Part shown: one piece after another, positions 6,662 through 59,818 of the stretch | Position numbering within the stretch: the first letter of the stretch is position 1 | Layout: each line of letters opens with the position of its first letter | DNA from: a virus | Taxonomy: Duplodnaviria; Heunggongvirae; Uroviricota; Caudoviricetes | Virus record (IMG/VR): IMGVR_UViG_3300017989_000052 | DNA length: 64,000 nucleotides | Reading direction: 5' to 3' (one strand) | Notes under the pieces: generated by a model | Told to the model about the DNA's origin: nothing | The model's input: only the letters and a program-made list of their open reading frames with translations | Databases searched by the model: none | Position numbers and translations under genes: made by a program

Positions 6662-7564
6662 ATGAGCTTCCAAATCAAGAACCACGTTGCTTCCGTTATC
6701 GAAGACAAGGATTTTTACGAGTTCCTTGTTATAAAATTGCTCCGAGAAAGGGTTCACTACGATAAAAGTAAAGGCCATATGATCCAACTTTATGGTGTAA
6801 AGATTTCAAACTTTAATTTTGAAGTTAGGAATATCTTTCACCCCCGGATTATTTCTTATCTCTTAACATTTGATATTTCAAATATCGCTTATAAAATCAA
6901 AGCAGCATCCCGCAAAGATTTTAGGGAAGTCTATGTTCCCGAAATCAAATTAAAAGTAAGTTTCTCTATTGGGTTTGACGAGGAAGAGAAAACTCTTTCT
7001 TATAAGGAAATTGATTATTTTAGCGCAGAAAACCCAAGGAATACCGGGGCTAGTTGGGGTTTTGGACGATACGGGAGACAGAAAAAGGCAATTAAACCAC
7101 TTAAAATTGATAGGAAAGCTGCTTTGACCGATAACGATGTCGGGAAAAGAGTGGTAGCGAAGAAACTAACATCGGCTGATATGCTTTACGAGCTAGTTTT
7201 CACGCGGGAACACACTATCAAAAAGAAGGAAGACTGGATTGTCTTTAATCAAAGAATTTTAGAAGAAATCAACGCCGATTTCCCAGAAGGGAAAATATTG
7301 ACCCCGGAACAAGCGGAAAAAAATAATAGACATTATATGGGCCACTCCCCAGCTACCTTTATTTTCCAGAACAAGGGCAGAATTGTAGCAGAGATTAAAT
7401 GCTATACGTTCAAGGGCATGCTAACGATCAAATTTAATTCCTATATGTCCGATACGAAAGCACATAACTTATATCTTTCCATGTTCGAGCCAAAGCAGGA
7501 AATGCAGCAAGCCGTTAGGAAATTCTACAAAACTCTCATAATTCCCCGGGTTATGGAAGCATAG
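6662..7564 (+). CDS. hypothetical protein
   Basis: 300-aa ORF. Confidence 0.4.
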   Translation: MSFQIKNHVASVIEDKDFYEFLVIKLLRERVHYDKSKGHMIQLYGVKISNFNFEVRNIFHPRIISYLLTFDISNIAYKIKAASRKDFREVYVPEIKLKVSFSIGFDEEEKTLSYKEIDYFSAENPRNTGASWGFGRYGRQKKAIKPLKIDRKAALTDNDVGKRVVAKKLTSADMLYELVFTREHTIKKKEDWIVFNQRILEEINADFPEGKILTPEQAEKNNRHYMGHSPATFIFQNKGRIVAEIKCYTFKGMLTIKFNSYMSDTKAHNLYLSMFEPKQEMQQAVRKFYKTLIIPRVMEA

Positions 7565-10259: not shown

Positions 10260-10799
10260 ATGAAACCAGAAACGATCTATGGTTTCCCCCGCTCTTTAAT
10301 CACTTACCAAAAGGGGAGGATTAAGAAGAGCGCAGAGGGGGTCAACCTAACTTTTAAAAAAATTCGTCCTTACCTTTCCTTAAAAACCCAAAGTAACCTA
10401 GAGATCTTTACGAAGGTTAAACAAATTACGTGGAAAAAGGTATGGGTCTTTTTCGTAAAACGAAGACGACGAGAATATTCAAAAACAAAGGTTACGTATA
10501 AAGAATATGAAAGAGCCTCTATCCTCATTGAAGGAAAAGACGAAAAAGGAATCGTTTACCAATATTGGAGAAAAGAAACGGCCCACCCAGGAGCGGGACA
10601 GACTCTTTTATATACTGAAGGGCGGAAACCAAAGCAAGCAATGAATATCATTGGAAACTATGCTAACGCCCATATGAAAGTTAAGCGTGCGATTAAAAAG
10701 AACGAGCTAAAGTCTTTATTAACAGACGAAGATAAATTTGTGCGAACATTCGCAAAGGAAGCATTAGGAGAACAAGATGGCGACGAAATACCCGACTGA
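10260..10799 (+). CDS. hypothetical protein, LLTH-x-VR motif family (KSLLTDEDKFVRTFAKEALG)
   Basis: C-terminal HEAT/PBS-like motif. Confidence 0.4.
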   Translation: MKPETIYGFPRSLITYQKGRIKKSAEGVNLTFKKIRPYLSLKTQSNLEIFTKVKQITWKKVWVFFVKRRRREYSKTKVTYKEYERASILIEGKDEKGIVYQYWRKETAHPGAGQTLLYTEGRKPKQAMNIIGNYANAHMKVKRAIKKNELKSLLTDEDKFVRTFAKEALGEQDGDEIPD

Positions 10800-16046: not shown

Positions 16047-16071
16047 TCACCTCATAGGGGTGGGGCCACTT
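16047..16071 (+). other. 9-bp stem hairpin immediately 5' of tRNA-Leu (possible processing or terminator element)
   Basis: GGCCTCACC / GGTGGGGCC stem around a TCATAGG loop. Confidence 0.3.
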
Positions 16072-16154
16072 GCCGGGGTGGCGAAATTGGCAGACGCGAC
16101 AGATTTAAGATCTGTTTCCCTTTGGGAGTGAGGGTTCAAATCCCTCCCCCGGCA
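16072..16154 (+). tRNA. tRNA-Leu (anticodon UAA), type II
   Basis: Hand-folded cloverleaf: acceptor GCCGGGG/CCCCGGC, anticodon arm ACAGA-TTTAAGA-TCTGT, long variable arm, T arm GAGGG-TTCAAAT-CCCTC, discriminator A; CCA not encoded. Confidence 0.8.
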
Positions 16155-16163
16155 TGTGAATAA

Positions 16164-16418
<255 letters not shown>

Positions 16419-16430
<12 letters not shown>

Positions 16431-17285
16431 CTTAAATTTATTTGGATTATGTTCTTCTCTATGGCAATTCCCACAAAGAAGAATACATTTTTCTAATTCT
16501 TTTCCCAACTTTGCTTTATTTTTATAATTACCAAGCAAGATGTTAATTTCTGAATCTTTTTCTCCATTATGGTGAAATTCTAAAATAGTTTTATTTACAG
16601 GCTTTAACCCACATTTGGAACATTTATTCCCAAGCTTGATTAAGGCTTCTTCTCTTATTTGTAACCTTCTAATTTTGCTTTGTAAATGAACTCTCTTATT
16701 ATCTGTTTTTCTTTTACATTCTTTCGAACAAAATTTGCTTCTAGCTTTAGGAAGTTTTACACCACAACAAACACATTTACCTTTTTCTTGGAAATATAGA
16801 GAATTCAGTTCCTCCTTAAGAAGTGCCCCTAGTTTTCCGGAGTGTATATTTCGATGACAATTTACGCAAGCTAAAATACACTTCTCCAACTCCTTTAAGA
16901 GAATTTCTCTTTTTCTATCTAATTTATCTGCGGACAGATTGAATTTTTTGCCTCCCCCTTCTTTATGGTGAAATTCTAACGCAGCGTAATTTTTATCGTA
17001 ACCACAAATAGAACATTTTCCCCCTAAAATGTTAATTAGCTCTATCCTTTTTTCCAAACGCCGCTTATTTTGATGGTCAACTATTTTTCTTAGGTTCCTT
17101 TTATTAGATAATTTCATCCGGCACTTTTCGGAGCAATATTTTCGTTGCTGCCCTTTTAGGGCTTTACCACAAACTAAGCAGTTTGTAGCTTTACAAAAAT
17201 CACAAATTTTTCGATACGAGGTTTTCCACCCCTCGGTAATAAATATTTGATTACAAGAAGTACATTTTCTTTTATATTTTTTCAT
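16419..17285 (-). CDS. HNH homing-type endonuclease (two HNH/zinc-finger modules)
   Basis: Repeated CxxC...EFHH...N...CxNCH motifs (CSICGYD...ALEFHHKEGGGKKFN...CVNCHRNIH and CSKCGLK...ILEFHHNGEKD...CGNCHREEH); start taken at the MKKYKRK ATG; the stop overlaps the tRNA-Arg 3' end on the opposite strand; markedly AT-rich compared with neighbours. Confidence 0.7.
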
Positions 17286-17336
17286 GATTCCCCTTCCTTC
17301 TAAAAAAGATAGAGTCATAAAATATTAACCGGAACA
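16434..17336. mobile_element. HNH endonuclease cassette bounded by a 14-bp direct repeat (TACCGGGTGTGCTT at 16420-16433 and 17337-17350)
   Basis: The left repeat copy is the 3' end of tRNA-Arg; the AT-rich insert is consistent with a mobile insertion that regenerates the tRNA 3' end. Confidence 0.45.
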
Positions 17337-17785: not shown

Positions 17786-19954
17786 ATGATGTTGAAGCAA
17801 ATTATCAAAAAGACTTTTCGTGTTCCTGTTACTACAAACTCCCCAGGCAAAGGATCAACGTTGGCGAGACAACTTGATGTTGCCTTGATGGGAAACGGCT
17901 TTAAACTCTCTGGACAACTCCTTGAATATTTAAGCGACCTACATCCCTCTTCCGTAAAAGGGATTGCAAAGTATATCCTCGACGCAGCAAAAGAATTAGT
18001 TGGAGGACATGTTAAGCACAATTCTTATTTTAAATCTTTCCCCAATAATATTCCGGATACAGAACAATTCTGGTTGGAGTGCATTATTAATGCTCTCTAT
18101 ACCCCGGAAAGCGCCGCCAAGGTTTCTTTTCAGCTAGAAACTGGGGTAGTTAATCTTCTTGATCTACCAACGTATGGACGCTACCAGCATACCTACGAGG
18201 AAATGTTGGAAGCACACGAGCAATTAATCGATTCTGCAAAAAATAAAATAAAGGTTCTCCATTTAGGGAAAGAATTAGCGGAGGAAACGGTTGCTCTATA
18301 TCACTCGCTTGCGGGAAGCCGAATCCCATTAAATGAGGAAGATCGCGCTTTGTTAGCAGAGCTAGCTGAATGTTGTATCGATGATGAACAGCCAGAACAA
18401 ATCCCGATTCGGGAAAACAAGGCGATTGTTAATAAAATTCGTATTGAGAATGCCCACGCAATTCTAGCAGACACTCCAACTGATGTTCTTCGTCTGGCGA
18501 GTTATTTGTCGGGGAATGATTCCACCTTGGATACAAAGCCTCGCTTTATTTCATTCCCAAAGAAAACGCGGCGGGTTCTTTTGGCGGCACTAAATCAGAT
18601 TGTCGACGAAAACCCAGCTAAGCTAGAAGAAGTCGTTCGTTATTCCGGGTATTGGAAACGGCTCGGAGAATTTCTCCACCCACGGGAATACGCAAACCGC
18701 TACGACAAGGCACAAGATATTTTTGCGATTGCTCGAGGGGATAAAAGGGTAAAGACCCACGCGGCGAAGGTAGAACTCGCTTTCATTAATAACGAGATTG
18801 CAAAAGCAGTTAAGTTATTAGAGCAAAAGCCGGGCGTATTTATCCGTAGCCTTGATCGGATCCTAAGGTCTGGGAAAGCACCAATTGTTCTGGGGAATAG
18901 CCTTACCTCTAGTATTGAACGGGTTTCTACCCGCGTAATTCTCTCTGTTCGGGAGCATCTAGCTAACCGGATTAAGGGAAATGTATCAAAACGCATTTTT
19001 GCGAATAGCAAAGGAACTGCCTGGACCGTCGCGGAAGACCGTGAACCCCTTCCAAAGATTGCGACGAAAAAGGTTATCGATATTCTCGATAAAGAAATTG
19101 TGCGGCGGATGCCAGTTCACAAGCACTTAGTTGTTGATGAAAAGGTGCTTAACCTAGCAATTCCGCTTAGCGATAAAGCAAAATCTACAGGATTTAATAT
19201 CTTGCCCCGTGGGTCTTTAATGCCCGCTCCGGAAGAAATCCTGCGCTTTTTCATCTATTGGAAGCAAAAGCAACACAGAACGGATTTTGATCTTTCAGCT
19301 ATTGCGTTGGATGAGAATTTCAATAGTTGCTTCCATCTCTCGTATACACATCTTTCGCATGGGGAACACGTCCATAGTGGCGACATTACGGAAGCACCAA
19401 GAGGGGCGTCCGAATTTATTGATGTCAAGTTGCCCTCGCTTTCAGCACAGTGCAAATATATTGTGCCACAAATTTATGTCTACTCCGGAGAGGGGTTCGA
19501 TGAAGTAGAAGAATCCTTCTTTGGGTACATGGCCCGAACCCAAGCTGAGATGGGCAGGCCATTTGAAGCAAAAACAGTTCAGGCTAAGTCCGATTTACGT
19601 GGACCCAACAAGGTTGCAATCCCATTGATCTTCGTTAAGAACGAGGATGGTTCCTGGGAAGCCAAGTGGGCTCATCTCTTTATCAAAGGACATGCTCGCT
19701 TTAATCGCGTAGAAGAAAATAAGGATACGGTTGGGAGCTTCGTACAAGCCATTGTCGAAAAAGAATACCTCAAGGTTGGGTATCTCTTTGATCTTGCAGC
19801 TAGTGCTAAGGCAGAGAAGTACTCTAAGTATCAAAAAGGTAAGGTTTACGAAGAGCCCATTACTTTTGTAGGTATAGAGGCCCCTGAAAACCTCCCGGAA
19901 GGTTCTAAAATAATTACGCTATCTAACCTTCATGAGTTCCTTCCGGAGGAATAA
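17786..19954 (+). CDS. large hypothetical protein with C-terminal TerD-like domain (tentative)
   Basis: The C-terminal FDLSAIALDENF...SGDITEAPRGASEFIDVKL...IVPQIYVYSG resembles the TerD/vWA-TerF calcium-binding fold pattern (DLD-S-LLD ... GDN-TG ... IRVDL ... IY). Confidence 0.4.
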   Translation: MMLKQIIKKTFRVPVTTNSPGKGSTLARQLDVALMGNGFKLSGQLLEYLSDLHPSSVKGIAKYILDAAKELVGGHVKHNSYFKSFPNNIPDTEQFWLECIINALYTPESAAKVSFQLETGVVNLLDLPTYGRYQHTYEEMLEAHEQLIDSAKNKIKVLHLGKELAEETVALYHSLAGSRIPLNEEDRALLAELAECCIDDEQPEQIPIRENKAIVNKIRIENAHAILADTPTDVLRLASYLSGNDSTLDTKPRFISFPKKTRRVLLAALNQIVDENPAKLEEVVRYSGYWKRLGEFLHPREYANRYDKAQDIFAIARGDKRVKTHAAKVELAFINNEIAKAVKLLEQKPGVFIRSLDRILRSGKAPIVLGNSLTSSIERVSTRVILSVREHLANRIKGNVSKRIFANSKGTAWTVAEDREPLPKIATKKVIDILDKEIVRRMPVHKHLVVDEKVLNLAIPLSDKAKSTGFNILPRGSLMPAPEEILRFFIYWKQKQHRTDFDLSAIALDENFNSCFHLSYTHLSHGEHVHSGDITEAPRGASEFIDVKLPSLSAQCKYIVPQIYVYSGEGFDEVEESFFGYMARTQAEMGRPFEAKTVQAKSDLRGPNKVAIPLIFVKNEDGSWEAKWAHLFIKGHARFNRVEENKDTVGSFVQAIVEKEYLKVGYLFDLAASAKAEKYSKYQKGKVYEEPITFVGIEAPENLPEGSKIITLSNLHEFLPEE

Positions 19955-20820: not shown

Positions 20821-20829
20821 ATCCTGGTT

Positions 20830-20922
20830 GGGGGACTAGCTCAATTGGTAGAGCAGCGGGTTTATGCCCCGTGTTAGTGTCTGATAAACACAAGGTTCTG
20901 GGTTCGAGTCCCAGGTCCCTCA
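20830..20922 (+). tRNA. atypical 93-nt tRNA-like gene with two candidate anticodon hairpins (GCGGG-TTTATGC-CCCGT = UAU, or GTGT-CTGATAA-ACAC = GAU, Ile)
   Basis: Acceptor GGGGGAC/GTCCCTC, D arm GCTC-AATTGGTA-GAGC, T arm CTGGG-TTCGAGT-CCCAG, discriminator A; 42 nt lie between the D and T arms instead of about 22. Confidence 0.5.
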
Positions 20923-20936
20923 TAAGAAAAAGAAAA

Positions 20937-23254: not shown

Positions 23255-23791
23255 ATGAAACCTGAAAAAAAGCTAAAGACGATTGCAAAAAGAATTAAAA
23301 GCAGTAAATCGCCATTTCTGCCAAAGGAACGGGTGTTAAGATGCCCTGAAGATAATTTCTATTTAGGCTTGTCCGTCGATACACCGCAAAAGGCATGGGA
23401 AAGAGCAAGAGAAATTGCTCGGGAGAAAGGGGACATTGAAAGCAGTGAGTATCTCAAAGACCGGGGGGAATTTCATATCACAGTTCTTTCCCCAAAGGAA
23501 CTACGCAAAGTTCTAAAGGACCACCCCGAGCTTAAAGAAGAGCCTGTTAAAATAACAACCACAGGTAAAAACGGGGTTAAGTATTTAGGGATTGGGCGGG
23601 CCGAGAAAAATGGTAATGTAGCATATTTCATTGTTGTCGATTGGCCCGCAGCAAGAAAACTCAGAGCAAAATATCTTGGGGAAGAAGAGGCTAACAAGCA
23701 AGAATTCCATATCACGTTAGGATTTAAGGAAAAGGATGTTTTTGGCGACCCACCGTTAAAAGGCCCAGAATCCCTCGTGGAAAAGTGGTAG
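23255..23791 (+). CDS. 2H phosphoesterase (LigT / 2',3'-cyclic phosphodiesterase family)
   Basis: Two H-x-T-x motifs (EFHITVL and EFHITLG) about 80 aa apart. Confidence 0.6.
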   Translation: MKPEKKLKTIAKRIKSSKSPFLPKERVLRCPEDNFYLGLSVDTPQKAWERAREIAREKGDIESSEYLKDRGEFHITVLSPKELRKVLKDHPELKEEPVKITTTGKNGVKYLGIGRAEKNGNVAYFIVVDWPAARKLRAKYLGEEEANKQEFHITLGFKEKDVFGDPPLKGPESLVEKW

Positions 23792-27245: not shown

Positions 27246-27779
27246 ATGCTTTCTAAAAATATTCAAAAAATAGCTTTCGATTTAATCGCGAAATCCCAAA
27301 AAAGATGCGAATCGGCAGGGCTTTTCTTGCCCCTCCCGAAACATATTGCAAAGCATTTTCCCCATAAACCAGAAGATACATCTCCTCCCCATGTGACGCT
27401 ACTTTATATTGGGGATGTCCCCGAAGTAGATGCCATTCTTTATAAAAAGATAGCAGAAGTTGCTGCAGCAAAAAATCCCGTTGGGAAGATGAAACTAAAG
27501 GACCCTTCCTTCTTCAAAAATCAGCATGATCAATGGATAGCGCACAACCCAATCGAATGCCCAGGGCTAGAGGACCTACGCAAAGCAATCTGGGATGCTT
27601 GTGATAAAATTGGATTAGAAGTCCAAGATAGTTTCAAAAAGTTTAAGCCTCATGCCACATTAGCTTACCTTGATAAAAAGAAGTATGACGGAGATTTCTT
27701 TATTGGGGACTTCCAACCCACATCTGTCGAACTATGGGGCTTTGGAAAGAAACATAAAATCCCCTTAATCCCTAACTAA
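27246..27779 (+). CDS. 2H phosphoesterase, second copy
   Basis: PHVTLLY and PHATLAY HxTx motifs. Confidence 0.55.
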   Translation: MLSKNIQKIAFDLIAKSQKRCESAGLFLPLPKHIAKHFPHKPEDTSPPHVTLLYIGDVPEVDAILYKKIAEVAAAKNPVGKMKLKDPSFFKNQHDQWIAHNPIECPGLEDLRKAIWDACDKIGLEVQDSFKKFKPHATLAYLDKKKYDGDFFIGDFQPTSVELWGFGKKHKIPLIPN

Positions 27780-36806: not shown

Positions 36807-37051
36807 TGCAAGTAACAGCAAAGACACTAGAAAAGTTAGGGTTTCGTAAAATCCCCTGGAAGGAACAGGGTAAACGAGAAATAGCGTACCAGTACAAAAC
36901 CGTAACCTTAACCCAATACACTTTTCGAGAAGGCTTCTTTTATTCCTCTTGTGGCGAAGATACGCCGATCAGCTCCGAAGAACACTTACTAGCCGTTGTA
37001 GAAACCCTTCACGGAGAATCGTTAAATGCCTCTGGCGACTTACCTAAATGA
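36806..37051 (+). CDS. hypothetical protein
   Basis: ORF track. Confidence 0.3.
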   Translation: MQVTAKTLEKLGFRKIPWKEQGKREIAYQYKTVTLTQYTFREGFFYSSCGEDTPISSEEHLLAVVETLHGESLNASGDLPK

Positions 37052-38255
37052 GAACTTCCCTTCTAGCGATGGAATTGAAGAACATTTCATGGAAAAGTTT
37101 GGCGTAAAGGTCAAACAAGAAAATGATTTGTTTCTCTTTCAATATGATATGTTAGCCGCGAAGTGGTTAGAACCAATTACCCATGTATGCCGAGGCACGA
37201 TCCTTCGGCTTAGTGGTGGGTCTTGGGAAGTCCTTTCTCGCCCCTTTGATAAGTTCTTCAATCAAGGCGAAGGGCATTGCAAGCTTTTTGAGACTTCTGC
37301 GTTTGAAGCAGCAATAGGCTCTCTTGCTTTTATCGAAAAAGCAGATGGAACTTGCATCCAAGTCTGGTTCGACGATATTAAGGAAGAGTGGAGAATCTCT
37401 ACGCTGGGGACGATAACAACCTGGTATGCTGGGGATTCCAATTTGACCTTCGATCAGCTCTTCTTCCATGTTCTCGGGAAGGGCGAGCTTGAAATACCAA
37501 ACGAGCTCCGGGGGCATACTTTGCTATTCGAGCTTTGCAGCATTGAGAACCGCATAGTCACCCAGTACGAAAAAGATACGATCTTCCTGCTAGCAATTCG
37601 AAACATTAAAACTGGGGATTATGTAGACCGGGAACAGCTGAAGGGTGTTGCAGATACCCTAGGAGTTCGTGTACCCGCACAAGAAAAACTAACTTCCTTA
37701 GGCATTCAAACTCTCAAGGAAGCTGTCGCCTACGTCGAAAAAGAGAGCGAAAAGCATGAAAAATACGGGAATTACCCCGAGGGAATGGTAATTTATAAAG
37801 AAGGCGTGCCGGTCTGTAAAATGAAGAATGAGCGGTATGTCCAACTTCACCACGCAGTTGGTGCGGGGGATTTGCTTTGCACCCGGAATAAAATTATCGA
37901 AGCATACTTTTCCGGAAACATCGACGATCTTATGCCCGTGTTAATACCAACGATGGTGAAGTTTGCCGAGACAGTAAGAAGTTGGTGGGCATCCCAACTT
38001 GCCAAACTGTTACCCATTGTAGCGGAGTTGGCAGCGGATGAATACGAAACACAGAAAGACTACGCACTTAAGGTACAAGCGATAGTCCCTAAACAGTATA
38101 TGGGATTTTTCTTCGTCAATAAGGAAAAAATACTAGCACATGAAATAGATTCCGATTCCTTTGCTGCCTGGATGAAGCAAAACTCTCGGAAATTTGAGAA
38201 AGAGATAAAGGAGCTCTATCGCCCGGCAAATTCGGAAACTCCCAACAACAAGTAA
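37026..38255 (+). CDS. RNA ligase 1 (T4 RnlA-like tRNA repair ligase)
   Basis: VCRGTILRL...SRPFDKFFNQGE...IEKADGTCIQVWFDD lines up with T4 RnlA ECRGIMFEM...SRPMEKFFNLNE...LTKEDGSLVSTYLDGD (motif I KxDG). Confidence 0.7.
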   Translation: MPLATYLNENFPSSDGIEEHFMEKFGVKVKQENDLFLFQYDMLAAKWLEPITHVCRGTILRLSGGSWEVLSRPFDKFFNQGEGHCKLFETSAFEAAIGSLAFIEKADGTCIQVWFDDIKEEWRISTLGTITTWYAGDSNLTFDQLFFHVLGKGELEIPNELRGHTLLFELCSIENRIVTQYEKDTIFLLAIRNIKTGDYVDREQLKGVADTLGVRVPAQEKLTSLGIQTLKEAVAYVEKESEKHEKYGNYPEGMVIYKEGVPVCKMKNERYVQLHHAVGAGDLLCTRNKIIEAYFSGNIDDLMPVLIPTMVKFAETVRSWWASQLAKLLPIVAELAADEYETQKDYALKVQAIVPKQYMGFFFVNKEKILAHEIDSDSFAAWMKQNSRKFEKEIKELYRPANSETPNNK

Positions 38256-39192: not shown

Positions 39193-39483
39193 ATGAAACT
39201 CGGAACGCTAGTTGCAGTGAATCTCAACCACCTGGAAAAGGTACTCGGCAAAGTTGTTGAAAGAGGGATTTCTGAGGAAGAGCTTATTATAGCAACCCCA
39301 AGTGGGGTAAAGACAAAAGCTCTAAGGAGCCAACTTGAAGCTTTAGATAAAGATAAAAACCAGGAAGAGTTGAATCAATTAAGAATGCACGAACAGGATA
39401 TTATACTAAAAGGTATTTTCCCTCTTTATGGGCGGAATCTAGTTTTGGATGAAGGTTTCTACCCAGACAACTACATGGAGTAA
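39193..39483 (+). CDS. hypothetical protein
   Basis: ORF track. Confidence 0.3.
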   Translation: MKLGTLVAVNLNHLEKVLGKVVERGISEEELIIATPSGVKTKALRSQLEALDKDKNQEELNQLRMHEQDIILKGIFPLYGRNLVLDEGFYPDNYME

Positions 39484-39487
39484 CCCA

Positions 39488-39901
39488 ATGAAGCTTGCTA
39501 TTATCATGCGTGGTTTGCCCGGTTCGGGAAAAAGCACTTTGGCCCAGGAACTGGCGACCAAAGCCGAAACTTCAGCAATTTGTTCGGCAGACGACTTCTT
39601 TGTTGTTGCGGGGGAATACAAATTCAACCCCAATTGGCTACCGAGAGCACACCAGACCTGTAAAGATAAGTTTAAGTCCCACCTTCGAAAAGGGACTGAA
39701 ATAGTTATCGTTGATAACACCAATACCCGAAAGTGGGAATTTGCCGAGTACGTGAAGATGGCTAAGGCCCACAACTATAAGGTGGAAATCAAAACACCTC
39801 AAACCGACTGGGCTTTTGACCCGGAAGAATGTGCAAAGAAAAATTCCCACGGGGTTCCCGCAGAAGCGATCCAGCGGATGAAAGATCGCTGGGAAGACTA
39901 A
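39488..39901 (+). CDS. P-loop kinase (polynucleotide kinase / AAA_33-like kinase domain, tentative)
   Basis: GLPGSGKSTLA Walker A, IVDNTN Walker B-like; size and layout match stand-alone Pnk kinase domains. Confidence 0.5.
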   Translation: MKLAIIMRGLPGSGKSTLAQELATKAETSAICSADDFFVVAGEYKFNPNWLPRAHQTCKDKFKSHLRKGTEIVIVDNTNTRKWEFAEYVKMAKAHNYKVEIKTPQTDWAFDPEECAKKNSHGVPAEAIQRMKDRWED

Positions 39902-39946: not shown

Positions 39947-40249
39947 ATGTCAGACCAATACGATCCTCTTGGAATTGAATTGCTTCATGCTAACGCTTTG
40001 GAAAAGTTTAAGGAACACCAACAAAAAGAATCCGGGATTGAGGCTTTGCAATCGCTAAGAGACTCTTATCTCTGGCTCGTAGAGCAACTTTTTTCTCTTC
40101 AAACCGCTTTAGCAAAGAGAGTTGATAAAACAGCGATAATGAAAGAAATCCTGGAGAGGTTTAGTAACGGTTTAGACGCCGAGCAGTTTGACGCAGACGA
40201 ATGGGGCCCAACGCTTGAAGCGATTGAGAATATTTTTAAGAGCTATTAA
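39947..40249 (+). CDS. hypothetical protein
   Basis: Start at the MSDQYD ATG with a GGAG ribosome-binding site. Confidence 0.3.
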   Translation: MSDQYDPLGIELLHANALEKFKEHQQKESGIEALQSLRDSYLWLVEQLFSLQTALAKRVDKTAIMKEILERFSNGLDAEQFDADEWGPTLEAIENIFKSY

Positions 40250-40746
40250 TCCTTAACCTTAATATCCCGCATACAACGGAATTTTTCATCTAGGTCCATT
40301 CCATAACCCAAAACAAAACGATCCGGGATTTCAAACCCGACAAAATCAGGGGTAAATGGAATAACTCGTCTAGATGGTTTACTCAGTAAAACCGCTGTTA
40401 AAATTTCTTTAGCTCCCGCTTCCCTCAACTTTCGGGCTAGAGTTGAAAGGGTTAGACCCGTATCGATAATATCATCGAGCAACAAAATGGTCTTTTGAGA
40501 AACATCTGGGAATTCCCCAATTTGGATATCGCCCGTAGATTCTTCTCCTTCATAAGACCTAGCTTTGATAAACTCTAACTCGTAGTCTTCCATGTTAAGT
40601 TCTTGCATTAAGTCAGAGCAAAAGAACGCAGCTCCTTTTAGAAGGGCTAAAACCAACACGTCCTTATCTTGCAACTTAGGTAATATTCGCCTAGCAAGGC
40701 TTCTGATTCGAGCTTTTATATCATCATTACTAATAAATGTTCTCAT
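40246..40746 (-). CDS. hpt: hypoxanthine/xanthine-guanine phosphoribosyltransferase
   Basis: PRPP-binding motif ILLLDDIIDTGLT and type I PRTase layout. Confidence 0.75.
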   Translation of the reverse strand: MRTFISNDDIKARIRSLARRILPKLQDKDVLVLALLKGAAFFCSDLMQELNMEDYELEFIKARSYEGEESTGDIQIGEFPDVSQKTILLLDDIIDTGLTLSTLARKLREAGAKEILTAVLLSKPSRRVIPFTPDFVGFEIPDRFVLGYGMDLDEKFRCMRDIKVKD

Positions 40747-40804: not shown

Positions 40805-42235
40805 ATGAATAAGAACCGAGAAAAAAGTAAGAAAGTGGCTTGTGACTTCTCTTCGAGAAGTTCCCCCCTTTTTCTTAAAACCAAGATGTTTAAAGCAGCA
40901 AACTATATCTTTGAAAAGTTAAATGCTGCTGGGCACTCCACTTATTTCGCGGGTGGTTGTGTGCGGGATTCAATCCTAAAACTATCTATTAATGATATCG
41001 ATATTGCCACTTCAGCAACCCCAGACGAAGTCCAAAAGCTTTTCAGGAAGTCTAAGGCGGTAGGGGCATCCTTCGGGGTTGTGCTTATTGATATTGATTC
41101 CATTCCGTTTGAAGTTGCTACTTTTAGGACTGATAGCTCTTATTCTGACGGGAGGCACCCCGATAAAGTAGAATACAGCAATGATCCCAAGATAGATATC
41201 CAACGTAGGGACTTCACAATCAACGGTCTTTTCTATGATGCTAAAACCGACGAAGTCCTTGATGTTGTGGGGGGTGTTAAAGACCTGGAAGCCGGAAAGG
41301 TGCGAGCAATTGGTAACCCGGAAGAAAGGTTTGCAGAAGATTACCTCCGGATGTTACGTGCTGTTCGGTTTGCTGCACGGTTTGGATTTGATATTGAGGA
41401 CGAAACTCTGTTAGCAATTCGAGGGAATGCCCATAAAATAAATGACTTAGCCGCCGAAAGGGTTAAAGCGGAGCTTACTAAAATTTGGGCCGGACCCAAC
41501 CCTCACTATGCTCTAGATCTACTTCGGACAACTGGGCTTCTCCAAGAAATATTACCGGAAGTCGCAGCTCTAGAGGGGGTGGAGCAGCCAAAGAAATTCC
41601 ACCCCGAGGGTGATGTTTATAATCATACATACTTTGCATTGAAAGCCATGTGGGAGGATTTGGGAGCTGATGTTTCTCCCACCCTTGCCTGGGGAGTTTT
41701 ACTCCACGACATTGGCAAACCACGGACTGCTAAGATAAATAGGAGTGGCCGGGTCAGTTTTAATGGGCATGACCACGTTGGTGCGAAAATGGCAGAAAGG
41801 GTTTGTGAGCGTTTGAAATTTTCAAATGAAGAACGAGATTTAATTATTACCTTAGTCCGCAACCATATGAAATTCTTGGTTGCCCGTAATATGAAAACCG
41901 TAACTCTTAAGAAGTTTTTACGAACTGAGGGTTTTGATCAACTCTTACAATTACATAAATATGATTCACTGTCGGGAATCGGGGACCTTTCAAACTATGA
42001 ATATACTCAACAAAAACTCGATGCTTTTGAAGCAGGCACCCTCCAAGACGGCCTCAGGCCGAAAATTCTCTTAAATGGCGAAAATTTGAAGGAATTGGGG
42101 TACGAACCGGGGCCCATGTTTGGCAAGTTCATTCGTGCTTTAGAGGACAAACAACTAAACGAAGAGATTAAGACTAAAGAAGAAGCAATTGGTTTTGCGC
42201 GAGTATACCTTGGGAAGGGTAAGAAGAATGTATAA
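40805..42235 (+). CDS. cca: tRNA nucleotidyltransferase (CCA-adding enzyme) with HD domain
   Basis: Pol-beta head GGCVRDSIL...DIDIAT, RxxRFAARF body, HD motif LLHDIGKP. Confidence 0.8.
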   Translation: MNKNREKSKKVACDFSSRSSPLFLKTKMFKAANYIFEKLNAAGHSTYFAGGCVRDSILKLSINDIDIATSATPDEVQKLFRKSKAVGASFGVVLIDIDSIPFEVATFRTDSSYSDGRHPDKVEYSNDPKIDIQRRDFTINGLFYDAKTDEVLDVVGGVKDLEAGKVRAIGNPEERFAEDYLRMLRAVRFAARFGFDIEDETLLAIRGNAHKINDLAAERVKAELTKIWAGPNPHYALDLLRTTGLLQEILPEVAALEGVEQPKKFHPEGDVYNHTYFALKAMWEDLGADVSPTLAWGVLLHDIGKPRTAKINRSGRVSFNGHDHVGAKMAERVCERLKFSNEERDLIITLVRNHMKFLVARNMKTVTLKKFLRTEGFDQLLQLHKYDSLSGIGDLSNYEYTQQKLDAFEAGTLQDGLRPKILLNGENLKELGYEPGPMFGKFIRALEDKQLNEEIKTKEEAIGFARVYLGKGKKNV

Positions 42236-45576: not shown

Positions 45577-45641
45577 AAAGATTTGACAACGTAGTTTTCA
45601 TCTCGATATACTTCTAAGATTCTTTCTCTACGTTGTCGGTT

Positions 45642-45713
45642 AAGCCGGTAGCTCAATTGGTTAGAGCGTCTGTCTTCCGGCGGATGATATGGGTTCGAAC
45701 CCCACCCGGCTTA
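45642..45713 (+). tRNA. atypical 72-nt tRNA-like gene; no canonical 7-nt anticodon loop, the best fold gives an 8-nt loop TCTTCCGG
   Basis: Perfect 7-bp acceptor AAGCCGG/CCGGCTT, D arm GCTC-AATTGGTTA-GAGC, T arm ATGGG-TTCGAAC-CCCAC, discriminator A; the anticodon stem pairs only as GTCTG/CGGAT with 2 G·U pairs. Confidence 0.45.
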
Positions 45714-45763
45714 TTTCAAAAAATTCCGGTTCACCTAACTTGGGTTTCTTAGGGTTAAAACAA

Positions 45764-56196: not shown

Positions 56197-56643
56197 ATGC
56201 TTCCCAAACACGTAGAAGACGCAATCTATCGCTGGACTGAAAATAGGGATGTTCGCTATAAGTGGGAACAATCCTACCTCCAAGCCGATCGGCTTGGGCG
56301 TGCCCGAATCACTTATATTCTTAATCGAGTTTCCCTCCCCACCTTCTTTGATTTCTACTACAAAGGGGAATTGCGGGAATTAATCCTGATTAAGGTATTT
56401 GCCGAACATGGCAATGTTTATCTTTGCGGTTTGGACGGAAATAAAAATGGGGAATGGCGTAAATTCAGGTTAGACCGGATTTCTCGGCTCCCCAAGATTT
56501 ATACGATACAAGAGTCCTGGGCGCAAGAAATTCGACGTCGAAAATTACGAAGGGATCAAGTAGACCCTTCATTCCTGCCGAGGGAAGTTGATATTAACGC
56601 GCTTCCTTTTGTTTCTGAGATAGGAGAAAGCCAATGTTCGTAA
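56197..56643 (+). CDS. hypothetical protein
   Basis: ORF track. Confidence 0.35.
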   Translation: MLPKHVEDAIYRWTENRDVRYKWEQSYLQADRLGRARITYILNRVSLPTFFDFYYKGELRELILIKVFAEHGNVYLCGLDGNKNGEWRKFRLDRISRLPKIYTIQESWAQEIRRRKLRRDQVDPSFLPREVDINALPFVSEIGESQCS

Positions 56644-57530: not shown

Positions 57531-57755
57531 ATGCGTATTTTTGCTAACGTTGTGCTTGGTCTAATTTCTGCCATACTAACTGCCTTAGTAGTTGGTGTTT
57601 TAGTTATGTTCCTCTGGAATGCATGCCTAGTTGGAACCGTCGCAGGAATTAAGATTATTGGTTTCTGGAAAGCATTCGGAATCAGCCTTCTGTGTAATCT
57701 ACTTTTCAAAAATAGTCTTTCAGTGCGGGCAAGTTCCAAGGAAAGGCACGGCTAA
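57531..57755 (+). CDS. small membrane protein (two TM helices)
   Basis: Hydrophobic profile. Confidence 0.3.
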   Translation: MRIFANVVLGLISAILTALVVGVLVMFLWNACLVGTVAGIKIIGFWKAFGISLLCNLLFKNSLSVRASSKERHG

Positions 57756-57931
57756 AAAGAAAATAAATTTCGAACATTTTTCCCAAGATTTCTTTTATAT
57801 ATTAGGTACCAAAGGGGGGCAGCAAACGCCCACCAGTAATACCCGGTAGCCGGGATTAAAACTGAGGCATTGCTTGTTACGGCCATGTGCCGTACGGCAC
57901 TTTCTGGAGCCCAAAAGCTCCTGCCTCAGAT

Positions 57932-58016
57932 GGGTGCGTCGCTCAGTTCGGCCGAGAGCACTGGCCTTTTAAGCCAGCGGAGTAATCCCACGTAGGTTCG
58001 AATCCTACCGCACCCA
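57932..58016 (+). tRNA. tRNA-Lys-like (anticodon UUU) with atypical 11-nt D loop and 14-nt variable region
   Basis: Acceptor GGGTGCG/CGCACCC, anticodon arm CTGGC-CTTTTAA-GCCAG (canonical Lys loop), T arm GTAGG-TTCGAAT-CCTAC, discriminator A. Confidence 0.6.
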
Positions 58017-58166
58017 TGAGCGATAGTTTAATAGGTTGTGGTTCTAGCTTAACCAAAGCATTCGGCTTAATCCCGAAAGATTTGGGTTAGAGTCCCAAGA
58101 CCACAGTCCGCAAAATACCAGGCACTCGCCAGCCTGGAGATGCAGGTTCAAATCCTGCTCGCTCAA
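58017..58166 (+). ncRNA. 150-nt composite tRNA-like RNA: 7-bp acceptor TGAGCGA (58017-58023) / TCGCTCA (58159-58165) and T arm GCAGG-TTCAAAT-CCTGC, enclosing an embedded tRNA-like unit (58037-58106)
   Basis: Hand-folded. The embedded unit has acceptor TGTGGTT/GACCACA, anticodon arm TTCGG-CTTAATC-CCGAA and T arm TTGGG-TTAGAGT-CCCAA. The outer unit has a 6-bp hairpin CCAGGC-ACTCGCCA-GCCTGG in the anticodon-arm position. Confidence 0.35.
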
Positions 58167-58172
58167 GTGGTT

Positions 58173-58255
58173 GGGGGAGTGGTGGAATGGCAGACACTGG
58201 GGCCTTAAAAGCCCTTGACCGTACGGTCGTGTGGGTTCGAATCCCACCTCCCCTA
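58173..58255 (+). tRNA. tRNA-Leu (anticodon UAA), type II, second copy
   Basis: Acceptor GGGGGAG/CTCCCCT, anticodon arm GGGGC-CTTAAAA-GCCCT, 15-nt variable arm with GACCG/CGGTC stem, T arm GTGGG-TTCGAAT-CCCAC. Confidence 0.65.
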
Positions 58256-58632
58256 CTTCTTTGAGAGGTTACGGGACCAGGCTAAGAACCCGTTAACCGG
58301 CCGTAGTATTTTCGTCTGGGAGAATGCTACTGGGTCTGGCCCAGCCGAGAATGGGCTATCAAAATTTGATCTGCTGCGGTGGTCCCTACCACTGTCGGTT
58401 TGGGTGGTCACTACCACTTGGTTGCTACCTCTAGGTTGGAAAGGGTAGAGCAGTTCAATGAAACGCGGTGGCCTGCTTACGGAGTGCCAAACGTCGATGG
58501 CAATGACGTAAAAAACACCATTATAGCGAGACTGGGCCTAAGCTGGATAATGAGGTCGCTATAACGTGGGTACTACGTGAGTGTACCTAGGACCAATGGT
58601 TCCCGACATTGGACACCGAAACAAGCGGGAAA
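58256..58632 (+). ncRNA. 375-nt non-coding, hairpin-rich segment inside the tRNA cluster (candidate structured RNA of unknown class)
   Basis: No ORF longer than 77 aa (those present overlap tRNA antisense); many local stems, for example CTGGGTCTGGCCCAG, GGTGGTCACTACCAC, CTACCTCTAGGTTGGAAAGGGTAG. Confidence 0.3.
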
Positions 58633-58705
58633 GGGCCGGTAGCTCAATGGTTAGAGCAGTTGACTCATAATCAATTGGCTGGGGGTTCGAATCCCTCTCG
58701 GCCCA
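58633..58705 (+). tRNA. tRNA-Met/Ile2 (anticodon CAU), elongator type
   Basis: Acceptor GGGCCGG/TCGGCCC with G1-C72, D arm GCTC-AATGGTTA-GAGC, anticodon arm GTTGA-CTCATAA-TCAAT, T arm GGGGG-TTCGAAT-CCCTC. Confidence 0.75.
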
Positions 58706-58707
58706 TC

Positions 58708-58855
58708 GCGCCTGTGGACTGCTGGAAGTCCTTGCCGCTGTCTCGCGCAAAGGCAGCGGACAAACTAGAAATCAATGGATTATCGCGCTTTCCTTAGGTT
58801 TCTGGGGGAAACTTACAATAGTAGGTTGGCGCAGGTTCAATTCCTGCCTGGCGCG
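58708..58855 (+). ncRNA. 148-nt tRNA-like RNA (acceptor GCGCCTG/CTGGCGC, D arm GGAC-TGCTGGAA-GTCC, T arm GCAGG-TTCAATT-CCTGC) with a ~95-nt internal insertion containing 2 hairpins
   Basis: Hand-folded; starts 3 nt after tRNA-Met and is followed by a terminator. Confidence 0.35.
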
Positions 58856-58863
58856 CTTGAAAA

Positions 58864-58896
58864 GGGAGGAGCTAATCGCGGCTCCTCCCTTTTTTT
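58864..58896 (+). terminator. rho-independent terminator closing the tRNA cluster
   Basis: GGGAGGAGCTAATCGCGGCTCCTCCC followed by TTTTTTT. Confidence 0.75.
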
Positions 58897-58959
58897 CACT
58901 AAAAAACATAATGTCAAAATACGAAGTTTCTAAAAATCTATCGAAATTCTATAAAAATT

Positions 58960-58980
58960 CCCAATATAATTAAGGTAGGA
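58960..58980 (+). promoter_or_regulatory. conserved promoter-like motif CCCAATATAATTAAGGTAGGA
   Basis: See 54316. Confidence 0.4.
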
Positions 58981-59013
58981 ACGCTTATTTTTCCTCCACA
59001 CAAAGGAAATCAA

Positions 59014-59229
59014 ATGAACACCAACCGCACAATTTACCACGGGAACTGGGGGATTACTTTTCTTAAAGACGGGAACCGGGTAGGTACCTTCTATTTTCCT
59101 GTTGGCCCACAAGGACCTGTAGATCCTTCGTATAATGAAGTAAGGACGATGCGTAATTGTTGGCTGTTTAATGGGGAATTGCCCGATGACGTTGTTTTAC
59201 ATGAAACATTGGAGATAAATAATGGATGA
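59014..59229 (+). CDS. hypothetical protein
   Basis: ORF track. Confidence 0.3.
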   Translation: MNTNRTIYHGNWGITFLKDGNRVGTFYFPVGPQGPVDPSYNEVRTMRNCWLFNGELPDDVVLHETLEINNG

Positions 59230-59818
59230 GGCAGCAATCGCAAAAAAGTTGGTTGATACATTAAAGAAACTGGGATATACGGTTTCCTGTGCTGAATCCT
59301 GTACAGGGGGACTTGTTACCCATCTCATTACCAGGGTTTCTGGGGCTTCTGACTGCCTAAATGAAAGTATCATAACTTATAGCAACTTGGCAAAGGCCAA
59401 GTATTTAGACATCCCTCTGAAAGTTATCGAAGAATCTGGGGCTGTTTCCCAGACTGTGGCAGTTAAAATGGCCGAGGGCATTTGCAAAATCTCCAAAGCC
59501 AATGTAGGAATTGCTATAACTGGAATAGCTGGTCCAGGGGGAGGAACGGCCCTGAAGCCTGTGGGTACAGTTTGGTTAGGGGTTTGTGTTAACGGCAAAA
59601 CCTTGACAGCACTAGTACCCCCCGAACAGGGCTCAACGTACATACCGACAACTATTGATATGGAGGGCCAAAAGAAGACATCGGGGGTATTTCAACCCAT
59701 AAAGAAAGGCATGGGGCGCACTGCTATCCAGAAGGCATCCGCATATAACGCTTTGTCTCTGGCCCTTCTCGCACTATCTGAAGAAAACCTAAATAAAGGA
59801 GAAACATGTTCAAACTAA
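59222..59818 (+). CDS. pncC: CinA C-terminal domain protein / NMN deamidase (PncC-like)
   Basis: VSCAESCTGGLV...ITYSNLAKAKYL...GAVSQTVAVKMAEG...AITGIAGPGGG...KPVGTVW are the hallmark CinA/PncC motifs. Confidence 0.75.
   Translation: MDEAAIAKKLVDTLKKLGYTVSCAESCTGGLVTHLITRVSGASDCLNESIITYSNLAKAKYLDIPLKVIEESGAVSQTVAVKMAEGICKISKANVGIAITGIAGPGGGTALKPVGTVWLGVCVNGKTLTALVPPEQGSTYIPTTIDMEGQKKTSGVFQPIKKGMGRTAIQKASAYNALSLALLALSEENLNKGETCSN

Follow-up and report, generated by a model that had tools for sequence, protein, structure and literature searches.

Two tRNA-framed elements of about 150 nucleotides in a tRNA cluster of a huge bacteriophage, one of them enclosing a second cloverleaf

We analysed a cluster of transfer RNA (tRNA) genes in a 64,000-nucleotide (nt) stretch of viral DNA (IMG/VR record IMGVR_UViG_3300017989_000052), hereafter the window, which is part of a huge bacteriophage genome. 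The subject of this work is two elements of 150 and 148 nt, E1 and E2, which stand between the canonical tRNAs of the cluster and are framed by tRNA-like ends. Two Logan assemblies and an ENA metagenome contig of 335 kb contain an identical stretch; these other copies (L001 to L003) were 100% identical to the window. The cluster sequence is thus not an assembly artefact, since it is identical in three independent assemblies. As read from the sequence, the locus is best explained as one polycistronic unit of ~1 kb, with a leader element, tRNA-Lys, E1, tRNA-Leu, a spacer RNA, tRNA-Met, E2 and a terminator in this order:

57862-57929, plus strand: leader element S0, 68 nt; an 8-base-pair (bp) closing helix (CUGAGGCA/UGCCUCAG) enclosing two hairpins; G+C 56.5%
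57932-58016, plus strand: tRNA-Lys(UUU) with a class-II-like variable arm CGGAGUAAUCCCAC (14-nt hairpin); ARAGORN, Rfam 61.7 bits
58017-58166, plus strand: E1, tRNA-framed RNA, 150 nt; from sequence, fold and ARAGORN on the spliced frame
58037-58111, plus strand: E1 insertion, 75 nt, in the D loop between positions 20 and 21; a second cloverleaf (ARAGORN 58036-58109, Rfam 58038-58105)
58173-58256, plus strand: tRNA-Leu(UAA), canonical class II, starting 6 nt after E1; ARAGORN, Rfam 55.8 bits
58257-58632, plus strand: G+C-rich Leu-Met spacer, 376 nt; no called gene (L001, L002)
58633-58705, plus strand: tRNA-Met(CAU) with a G1-C72 pair; ARAGORN, Rfam 73.7 bits
58708-58855, plus strand: E2, tRNA-framed RNA, 148 nt; from sequence and fold
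58860-58899, plus strand: intrinsic terminator closing the operon; a 13-bp perfect hairpin (58860-58872/58881-58893, 100% complementary), then TTTTTTT

The G+C content was 48 to 60% throughout 57862-58855, compared to a window mean of 42% and to 26.5% in the next intergenic stretch. ARAGORN called four tRNAs at 57.9 to 58.7 kb, namely Lys(UUU) at 57931-58017, Leu(UAA) at 58036-58109, Leu(UAA) at 58173-58256 and Met(CAU) at 58633-58705, and their scores with the Rfam tRNA model were 61.7, 45.2, 55.8 and 73.7 bits, respectively. An initial annotation made from the sequence had listed a Lys-UUU tRNA with a type II-like arm, a second Leu-UAA and a Met-CAU, all of which were borne out by the two programs. 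None of the RNAs of the operon, tRNA-Lys included, has an encoded CCA.

E1 starts at the nucleotide directly after the tRNA-Lys discriminator. Its acceptor is a perfect helix of 7 bp, UGAGCGA (58017-58023) paired with UCGCUCA (58159-58165), and sits directly on a canonical T arm at 58142-58158 (GCAGG-UUCAAAU-CCUGC). U8 (58024) is followed by a D arm with the stem GUUU/AAAU (58026-58029/58113-58116), the loop of which contains A14, G18G19 (58030-58036) and A21 (58112). Next come a 6-bp stem with an 8-nt loop ACUCGCCA (58118-58137) and a 4-nt variable loop, AGAU, ending in U48. The core bases U8, G10, A14, A15/U48, G18G19, A21 and A26, the T-side bases G53, U54, U55, C56, A58 and C61, and the discriminator A73 (A58166) were each found in tRNA register, and thus all core and elbow nucleotides of a tRNA are present in E1. 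When only the elbow and core set of U8, A14, G18G19, U54-U55-C56, A58 and the acceptor/T-arm module was considered, E1 had every member in register. The minimum free energy (MFE) of E1 was -52.9 kcal/mol with z = -4.21, where the z-scores for E1 and E2 compare the MFE with 200 dinucleotide shuffles, and 0 of the 200 shuffles were as stable.

The clean acceptor of 7 bp and the canonical T arm that the initial annotation had described for E1 were therefore recovered, as a perfect helix abutting the T arm. Its estimate of a chance below 1% for the outer 7-mer complement is about right; the probability of such a match anywhere 95 to 260 nt 5' of an orphan T arm is ~1% (166/4^7). For E1, a 7/7 match has a probability of ~1% for each T arm when all lengths are allowed, and of ~0.02% when it must abut the tRNA as observed. 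That an element should begin precisely at +1, next to the discriminator of the tRNA before it, is far rarer by chance than the 7-mer complement alone.

The 75-nt insertion lies at D-loop position 20/21, which is solvent-exposed, length-variable and structurally tolerant in tRNAs. An inner tRNA-like unit had been proposed here, and both programs indeed called it a tRNA: ARAGORN reported tRNA-Leu(taa), and the Rfam tRNA score of 45.2 bits exceeded the gathering score of 29 bits, which no other part of E1 reached. The anticodon loop of the inner cloverleaf is CUUAAUC, with the anticodon UAA and U at position 37, and the variable loop is short. Its D loop of 5 nt has no GG, and its T loop, UUAGAGU, has A56 in place of C56. 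In the MFE structure, flanking pairs extend the inner acceptor helix to 10 bp, and the stems are mismatch-free apart from the acceptor register. A stop-codon suppressor was considered and rejected for the inner unit; its anticodon is UAA rather than UUA, CUA or UCA, and the open reading frames (ORFs) read normally in code 11. E1 is really a cloverleaf nested in a tRNA-like frame, and standard tRNA finders, which report the inner cloverleaf only, silently miss the 150-nt gene.

The outer frame of E1 was examined further on its own. Without the 75-nt insert, ARAGORN returned a 77-nt 'possible pseudogene' tRNA-?(Arg or Ala)(tcgc), and in a scan of all E1 deletions the inspected solutions were almost all odd-loop calls. 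The frame gave no full-length alignment to the Rfam tRNA model at E ≤ 10; all that matched was a T-arm fragment of 16 bits at 58138-58158.

E2 starts 2 nt past the tRNA-Met discriminator and is followed by the terminator hairpin. Its acceptor strands, GCGCCUG/CUGGCGC (58708-58714/58848-58854), pair with one U-U mismatch or, alternatively, form six G-C-rich pairs in a shifted register; of the ends claimed earlier for this element, the canonical T arm stood while the 'clean' 7-bp acceptor did not. U8 is at 58715, and the D hairpin at 58716-58731 has an 8-nt loop, UGCUGGAA, with GG and A21 in register. All elbow and core nucleotides are present except A14, which is U. The T arm at 58831-58847 (GCAGG-UUCAAUU-CCUGC) is near-identical to that of E1, and the discriminator is G58855. 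The middle of E2 consists of three hairpins: H1 (58732-58763) with 12 bp and the loop CGCGCAA, which has G instead of U33; H2 (58765-58805) with 9 bp, an internal loop and 3 bp; and H3 (58810-58827) with 7 bp. The MFE of E2 was -63.6 kcal/mol (z = -4.11), and none of the 200 shuffles was as stable. By themselves, the three hairpins of the middle gave z = -4.21, with the MFE structure making up 0.32 of the ensemble, so the internal region has one dominant fold. A UCGCGC motif occurs at the 5' end of E2 and in two of its hairpin loops, and a related CGCGC lies in its 3' acceptor strand. E2 gave no Rfam tRNA alignment at E ≤ 10, and paralogy between E1 and E2 beyond the near-identical T arm was not demonstrable.

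A second way to parse E2 was also found. The alternative hairpin AGGUUU-CUGGGGG-AAACUU is a correct anticodon arm for tRNA-Pro(GGG), in a fold 9.5 kcal/mol worse than the MFE. After removal of 58733-58794 (62 nt), ARAGORN drew a class-II-like tRNA-Pro with a variable-arm hairpin and the loop CUGGGGG (Y32, U33, GGG, G37). The putative 62-nt insert alone was not unusually structured (z = -1.34), and in the MFE it pairs with the would-be anticodon strand (CUAGAAAUC/GGUUUCUGG).

Both elements keep the features that processing enzymes use, that is, a 7-bp acceptor stacked on a canonical T arm and an elbow formed by the D-loop GG and the T loop. A usable anticodon arm, judged from the sequence, is lost in both. 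A canonical arm has a 5-bp stem and a 7-nt loop with Y32-U33 and R37, as opposed to the 6-bp stem and 8-nt loop of E1 and the 12-bp stem and CGCGCAA loop in the MFE of E2. The codons served by the other tRNAs of the phage (UUA, AGA, AUA and AAA) end in A or U. E1 and E2 are unlikely to decode, because their loops and stems are unfit and the would-be anticodons (CGC and GGG) fall outside this pattern. We conclude that E1 and E2 are a real and unusual feature, and the idea of tRNA-derived structured RNAs, already raised in the initial annotation, holds for both.

Comparison with known RNA families gave no other identity. At E ≤ 10, the E1 outer frame, E2 and the spacer had no match outside the tRNA family, whether to group I introns, tmRNA, Y RNA, ribozymes or any other Rfam family; the initial annotation had suggested a search for tmRNA, RNase P, group I/II introns and Y RNA, and none of them was supported. 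The group I core (RF00028) had no match in 57700-59000 at this threshold, while a positive control elsewhere in the window (16188-16386) scored 87.6 bits. No tmRNA was found by ARAGORN in its tRNA and tmRNA mode or by Rfam. Position 3:70 is A-U in E1 and G-C in E2, with no G3-U70, and inspection by eye only revealed no credible tmRNA tag reading frame. Neither a Y RNA nor a YrlA model matched at E ≤ 10; the two ends of each element pair as an acceptor-like helix, and none of the 50 window ORFs scanned had a Ro/TROVE domain. Identities as tmRNA, Y RNA, group I intron or small ribozyme were thus rejected for want of Rfam or ARAGORN support. No bulge-helix-bulge was visible by eye, with no dedicated search for the motif; the junction helix of E1 is interrupted by one 1-nt bulge only, and no 3-4-3 motif occurs in the MFE of E2. 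The same 50 ORFs contained no splicing endonuclease candidate. ARAGORN identities for the elements varied among Trp, Asn, Arg, Pro and '?'; the intron-mode calls (Trp, Asn and Arg), which had unstable solutions, weak D stems and mutual inconsistencies, were rejected, and intron mode gave no stable tRNA identity.

We searched for homologues in several collections. Exact and degenerate DNA patterns in IMG/VR retrieved no homologue of E1, E2 or the spacer, and a loop-spacing pattern in IMG/VR matched long-variable-arm tRNA-Lys genes and no E1. The JGI metagenome scan gave 39 loci, all of them chance or D-loop matches and none related by blastn or tblastx. There was no homologue in the GTDB genomes, and when the cluster, E1 and E2 were compared by blastn with 50,697 phage records, only generic T-arm segments matched. 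Searches anchored on the flanking 297-amino-acid, CinA and WYL proteins found no relative covering the cluster, a chimeric query of three small flanking proteins had no match, and the P0003 loci carried no tRNAs. Two relatives, L006 and L007, have ~70% nucleotide identity to the window, and their contigs break off to the two sides of the cluster, at window-equivalent 59098 and 57372. A further relative, L005, is not syntenic upstream and lacks the cluster 5' of its CinA gene. The best phage-database match was the 485-kb uncultured phage LR745208.1 (45.6% amino-acid identity in one protein), which was dismissed as a usable relative with its G+C of 55% and only that one protein in common. In all, the searched collections yielded no homologue.

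To learn how real over-long tRNA genes are built, we scanned all retrieved loci for an orphan T arm with a 7-nt strand after it and the complement of this strand 95 to 260 nt upstream. Among 156 orphan T arms, perfect 7-nt matches occurred in at least 6 independent phage loci, compared to ~1.6 expected by chance, and all of them abut a tRNA inside a tRNA array. Terminal matches of 6/7 numbered 56, against 30 in a reversed control. Several of the perfect-match loci were true insert-bearing tRNAs, spanned end-to-end by the Rfam tRNA model. For example, L048 989-1099 (58.5 bits) and L048 1105-1212 (51.2 bits) have an anticodon-loop insert of ~38 nt after position 37 (Ile-GAU and Arg-UCU), which is too short for a group I intron. 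L010 5896-6015 was likewise spanned (50.0 bits), a further over-long viral tRNA gene was L048 2298-2429, and the overall range was 108 to 132 nt. A locus of a different kind was L047 3870-3985, an element of 116 nt starting 4 nt after a tRNA-Thr, in which a perfect acceptor of 7 bp and a canonical T arm frame three hairpins; neither ARAGORN, intron mode included, nor Rfam found a tRNA in it. It lies in a 27-tRNA array on a 167-kb viral contig, in which a manA RNA (7204-7405, 61.6 bits) stands between tRNA-Met and tRNA-Gly. There was no end-to-end Rfam tRNA alignment for E1, E2, the L047 element or rnaC of phage T4. A tRNA with an insert can thus be set apart from a tRNA-framed RNA, because the Rfam tRNA model spans only the former, and E1 and E2 belong to the second group. 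These matches suggest that tRNA-framed RNAs recur in other phage tRNA arrays.

The enzymes that would act on such RNAs are encoded in the window:

40805-42235, plus strand: phage-encoded CCA-adding enzyme (Pfam PolyA_pol 2.4e-36, PolyA_pol_RNAbd, HD, tRNA_NucTran2_2)
1621-2874, 23255-23791, 27246-27779, 37026-38255, 39449-39901 and 40805-42235: RNA heal-and-seal set, including the CCA-adding enzyme with its HD domain (Pfam scan)

The set comprises an RNA ligase (PF09414), a T4 Rnl1-like ligase, an AAA_33 polynucleotide-kinase-like protein and two 2H phosphoesterases (2H-SAK and LigT-like), and although spread across the window it appears from its domains to be a complete RNA-repair toolkit. 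The activities resemble those of fungal and plant tRNA ligase, but in the phage they are on separate proteins.

We favour the reading that E1 and E2 are tRNA-derived, non-decoding RNAs matured by RNase P and CCA addition, possible tRNA mimics and analogues of T4 rnaC, and we give it a probability of roughly 45%. The substrate rules of RNase P and of the CCA-adding enzyme are established. According to these rules, RNase P would cut 5' of every acceptor/T-arm module, including 58016/58017 and 58707/58708. E1 and E2 begin 0 and 2 nt past the discriminators of tRNA-Lys and tRNA-Met, and therefore the same cuts would form the 3' ends of those tRNAs. As the operon has no encoded CCA, the phage CCA-adding enzyme would complete all ends, and E1 and E2 would be released as CCA-tailed, stable RNAs of ~150 nt. 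They may then divert nucleases directed at tRNAs, or other proteins that bind tRNAs, as decoys or sponges, and in this view the phage would commit considerable resources to the contest over tRNAs. This proposal is speculative, a reasonable guess and not a result; it was made because of the repair enzymes in the window together with the documented tRNA-cleaving defences and phage tRNA countermeasures, as phage tRNAs are reported to counter such defences (PMC11464382, PMC11555353, PMC13056530).

Several points weigh against this reading. Everything rests on one sequence, with no homologue in the searched collections. RNase P cleavage, CCA addition and stability are what we infer, and the decoy role is a conjecture. 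The resemblance to T4 rnaC is architectural only. Furthermore, the parse of E2 as a class-II-like tRNA-Pro(GGG) with a 62-nt insert favours a spliced tRNA, and the number of tRNA core nucleotides left in the E1 frame also makes a real tRNA gene, disrupted only recently, a plausible origin.

The last of these points belongs to a broader alternative, which we consider somewhat unlikely, in which both elements are disrupted or decaying tRNA genes. The outer frame of E1 would be a former tRNA gene with another tRNA gene inserted in its D loop, E2 would be a former tRNA with inserted sequence, and only the canonical tRNAs, and perhaps the inner cloverleaf, would matter, all other sequence being spacer or junk that is merely transcribed. 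The non-canonical anticodon loops (8 nt in E1, no U33 in E2) and the pseudogene label on the spliced E1 frame fit such a history, as do the defective 6- or 8-nt loop of another tRNA in the window (45641-45714), a tRNA-Met-like D-arm fragment in the spacer that suggests tRNA gene debris, the failure to find homologues in the searched collections, and the relative L005, which has no cluster upstream of its CinA gene. However, neutral decay should have broken some helices, and all of them are intact in both elements, including those of the inserted parts. The perfect acceptor complementarity of E1 is kept over 135 nt, both elements start precisely at a tRNA 3' end, and the G+C content is high throughout, unlike the real intergenic DNA of this genome. 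Moreover, there are two independent cases in one operon, and T4 rnaC, which is similarly built, is an expressed stable RNA (PMC9697503). Plain chance, with the outer helices as accidental complementarity around ordinary tRNA spacers, is very improbable. Terminal matches of 6/7 are indeed common noise, as the reversed control showed, but the 7/7 match of E1 is rare at any length and rarer still at the abutting position, an orphan canonical T arm is not expected in a spacer, z is below -4 for both E1 and E2, and the D-loop register matches tRNA numbering.

It is unlikely that E1 and E2 are insert-bearing tRNA genes that are spliced, with the 75-nt cloverleaf removed from E1 and 62 nt from E2 and the halves rejoined by the RNA-repair enzymes of the phage. 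E1 would then yield a tRNA with an expanded loop, and E2 a decoding, class-II-like tRNA-Pro GGG. This would account for the full set of core tRNA nucleotides in the E1 frame and for an insert at the tolerant D-loop position, and the shortened E2 gives a cloverleaf with the loop CUGGGGG and a variable-arm hairpin, long variable arms on non-Leu tRNAs being a habit of this phage. The pairing of the E2 insert with the would-be anticodon strand is often seen in introns. The necessary enzymes (the Rnl1-like ligase, the second RNA ligase, the AAA_33 kinase and two 2H phosphoesterases) are in the window, the phage has one intron-bearing tRNA (group I, 16164-16431), and tRNAs with anticodon-loop inserts of 36 to 38 nt occur in other viral contigs. 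However, the intron-containing tRNAs envisaged in the initial annotation found no support: no ribozyme or intron family matched at E ≤ 10, no bulge-helix-bulge was visible by eye and the host signals are bacterial, no endonuclease candidate was identified among the 50 ORFs, and the intron-mode solutions contradict each other. In addition, E1 keeps its 8-nt loop once the insert is removed, the tRNA-Pro fold of E2 is worse than the MFE by the 9.5 kcal/mol given above, its insert is far less structured than the three hairpins (z = -1.34 versus -4.21), and the Rfam tRNA model bridges true insert-bearing tRNAs and does not bridge E1 or E2. A distinctly improbable variant is that E1 and/or E2 are tRNA genes with a new kind of intervening sequence, removed by protein-only splicing in a bacteriophage. 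In E1, RNase P and a 3' tRNase would excise the inner tRNA and leave a 3'-OH and a 5'-phosphate, and these ends, held by the acceptor and D stems, could be joined by either RNA ligase of the phage. In E2, an endonuclease would remove 62 nt, and the kinase, the 2H phosphoesterases and the Rnl1-like ligase would heal and seal the ends to give tRNA-Pro(GGG). If true, tRNA maturation would depend on the phage's own repair enzymes. We also regard as quite unlikely that E1 is a processing scaffold, whose product is the inner non-canonical tRNA (UAA) and whose frame only offers it to RNase P and the 3' enzymes while keeping it apart from tRNA-Lys and tRNA-Leu, with E2 being unrelated. The inner unit is the sole part of E1 that passes the Rfam tRNA threshold, its anticodon fits the A/U-ending codons of the other phage tRNAs, and tRNA-Leu genes of type-I length are found in the phage arrays of L047 and L033. 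Against this, its acceptor is extended to 10 bp by flanking pairs, and an extended acceptor helix should hinder, not help, RNase P cleavage. In addition, position 37 of the inner unit is U and its G18G19/C56 elbow is missing, the phage already has two canonical tRNA-Leu(UAA) genes called by ARAGORN, and a scaffold would leave both the retained D-loop/T-loop tertiary nucleotides of the frame and the existence of E2 unexplained.

The leader and the spacer of the operon were analysed in the same way. The fold of 57860-57931 had -32.1 kcal/mol and z = -4.78, and 0 of 200 shuffles were equally stable. The 3' end of S0, which lies outside the coordinates of the initial annotation, is 2 nt ahead of tRNA-Lys, and S0 would be released by the same RNase P cut that frees this tRNA. 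A complementarity between leader and anticodon (I1) was dismissed, as ~3 such 9-mers are expected by chance. The Leu-Met spacer had been described as a hairpin-rich segment of 375 nt with no ORF. It indeed has no called gene, but it is 376 nt long and is overlapped by mechanical ORFs of 77, 61 and 54 amino acids, all with TTG or GTG starts. The whole spacer gave z = -1.50, with 9 of 100 shuffles as good, and the description as a structured segment is therefore overstated: only the three-hairpin domain at 58260-58362 (z = -2.67) was more stable than shuffles. In the spacer interior there was no Rfam match at E ≤ 10, and the single 13-bit match that touches the spacer is centred on tRNA-Leu (58205-58279). 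A fragment like the tRNA-Met D arm lies at 58440-58455, and near-identical twin hairpins, GGTGGTCCCTACCACT and GGTGGTCACTACCACT, occupy 58378-58393 and 58403-58418 on the plus strand, with starts 25 nt apart. With 51.3% G+C, the spacer clearly exceeds both the window mean and the intergenic DNA that follows, which makes it unlike a neutral spacer; a constrained RNA is plausible.

The unusual arm of tRNA-Lys has parallels. Long variable arms on non-Leu tRNAs recur in the window on Lys and Ile, the latter being tRNA-Ile(UAU) at 20829-20923 (plus strand; 95 nt, variable arm ~23 nt). A tRNA-Lys(UUU) of 80 to 89 nt was present in 35 of the 46 IMG/VR loci matched by the loop-spacing pattern, in 26 distinct sequences (loci L009-L052). 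Also present in these arrays were type-I-length tRNA-Leu (75 to 77 nt) and tRNAs for Ile or Lys(CUU) with a long arm. Phage tRNAs seem, from these sequences, to have swapped variable-arm class and anticodon identity. tRNA-Lys(UUU) is a known target of the PARIS and Schlafen nucleases.

Other tRNA genes of the window are also irregular. A tRNA-Arg(UCU)-like gene at 16164-16431 (plus strand), directly 3' of tRNA-Leu(UAA) 16071-16155, has its anticodon loop split by a group I intron (CUUCU, intron, AA; Rfam Intron_gpI 87.6 bits at 16188-16386); ARAGORN overlooks it by default and, in intron mode, wrongly calls it Gln(ttg). It adjoins a 299-amino-acid ORF on the minus strand (16419-17318) with a treble-clef/DUF2116 match, tblastx relatives of which lie beside the tRNA arrays of L012 and L050; this ORF may be a homing-endonuclease-like gene. 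The tRNA at 45641-45714 (plus strand) scored 50.7 bits and has an anticodon loop of 6 or 8 nt (ARAGORN 'tRNA-??? (tc)'). The sole protein in common with LR745208.1 is a protein of 722 amino acids without a Pfam domain (17786-19954, corresponding to 149247-151457 with 45.6% identity), which is flanked by tRNA genes in both genomes, at 16.4/20.8 kb in the window and 144/153 kb in LR745208.1. More distant copies occur in the tRNA-rich jumbo phages XacN1, Xoo-sp13 and SCTP-2. A small WYL-domain protein 1.3 kb 5' of the cluster (56197-56643, plus strand) has 86% identity in the relative L007, compared to 59% for its neighbour. The remaining features concern NAD and the host:

490-1110, 40246-40746 (minus strand) and 59222-59818: candidate NAD-salvage genes
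10777-12801: NAD-dependent DNA ligase LigA

The salvage candidates are an NMNAT-type cytidylyltransferase-like protein, a phosphoribosyltransferase and a CinA/PncC-like amidase with a C-terminal extension, and together with the NAD-dependent ligase they could be a counter to NAD-depleting defences. The host is bacterial, as indicated by several sigma-70-type factors, NAD-dependent LigA, the class II CCA-adding enzyme and Rho-independent terminators. An archaeal virus is ruled against by the bacterial sigma factors, LigA, the class II CCA enzyme and the intrinsic terminator.

Structural comparison with known systems places E1 and E2 near several RNA classes. Insert- and intron-bearing tRNAs are likewise over-long genes with normal acceptor, D and T arms. 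However, true insert-bearing tRNAs have the insert in the anticodon loop and give a canonical 7-nt-loop tRNA once it is removed, whereas the insert of E1 is in the D loop and that of E2 between the D and T arms. In tmRNA and YrlA, as in E1 and E2, a mimic of the acceptor/T arm (and elbow) is fused to a non-tRNA body and matured by tRNA enzymes; in Y RNAs, by contrast, the ends form a Ro-binding stem, while in E1 and E2 they form an acceptor. Mitochondrial punctuation, MALAT1/mascRNA and the manA RNA of L047 are cases in which structured RNAs are flanked by tRNA-type processing signals that define their ends. The same punctuation logic would apply to S0 and the 376-nt spacer, but in E1 and E2 the processing signal is inside the RNA itself rather than in the neighbouring tRNA, and Rfam found no manA RNA in the window. 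The inner cloverleaf of E1 resembles tRNAPyl and mitochondrial-type tRNAs in its 5-nt D loop without G18G19 and a T loop off the T-Psi-C consensus, and in tRNAPyl a small D loop without G18G19 and a non-T-Psi-C T loop are correlated losses (PMC7609411). It differs from tRNAPyl in its anticodon (UAA, not CUA), 5-bp anticodon stem and two linker nucleotides and in being embedded in another RNA, and no PylRS or other dedicated synthetase was seen.

The closest counterparts are the stable RNAs of phage T4. T4 rnaD (119 nt) and rnaC (139 nt) follow tRNA-Arg with spacers of 1 nt and 6 nt at the end of the tRNA cluster, and the function of these species 1 and 2 RNAs was still called unknown in a 2022 study (PMC9697503). 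Like E1 and E2, they are non-tRNA RNAs of 120 to 150 nt that lie in a tRNA cluster, abut a tRNA and are co-oriented with it. The 3' end of rnaC has CCGGG-UUCGAAU-CCCGG and a 7-nt strand pairing 5/7 with the 5' end (5 Watson-Crick pairs, 2 U-U), with long hairpins between. It is thus similar to E2 in a terminal pairing with U-U (two in rnaC, one in E2) and in the long internal hairpins that replace the anticodon region. The length, the abutting tRNA, the 3' T arm with its 7-nt strand and the hairpins in place of an anticodon arm that characterise rnaC were all found in E1 and E2. However, the sequences showed no similarity by blastn, and rnaC has no nested cloverleaf and no clear D-arm/GG elbow was found in it, both of which E1 has. 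In addition, rnaD and rnaC are in tandem, whereas E1 and E2 are interspersed, after tRNA-Lys and after tRNA-Met. By this analogy, E1 and E2 are best filed with the T4-type stable RNAs of tRNA clusters, the cloverleaf-in-D-loop design being so far unprecedented. Unexplained stable RNAs in phage tRNA clusters have been an old question since T4 species 1 and 2. E1 and E2 present the same theme in an unrelated huge phage, in which the tRNA frame is kept down to the nucleotides of the tertiary contacts and the decoding arm is replaced, in one case by a complete second cloverleaf at D-loop position 20/21. Cleavage of tRNAs is a major anti-phage defence, carried out by PARIS, retron effectors and Schlafens. 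If our favoured reading of E1 and E2 as tRNA mimics is true, tRNA-framed RNAs as a class would have a concrete function, namely to soak up or misdirect enzymes that act on tRNAs.

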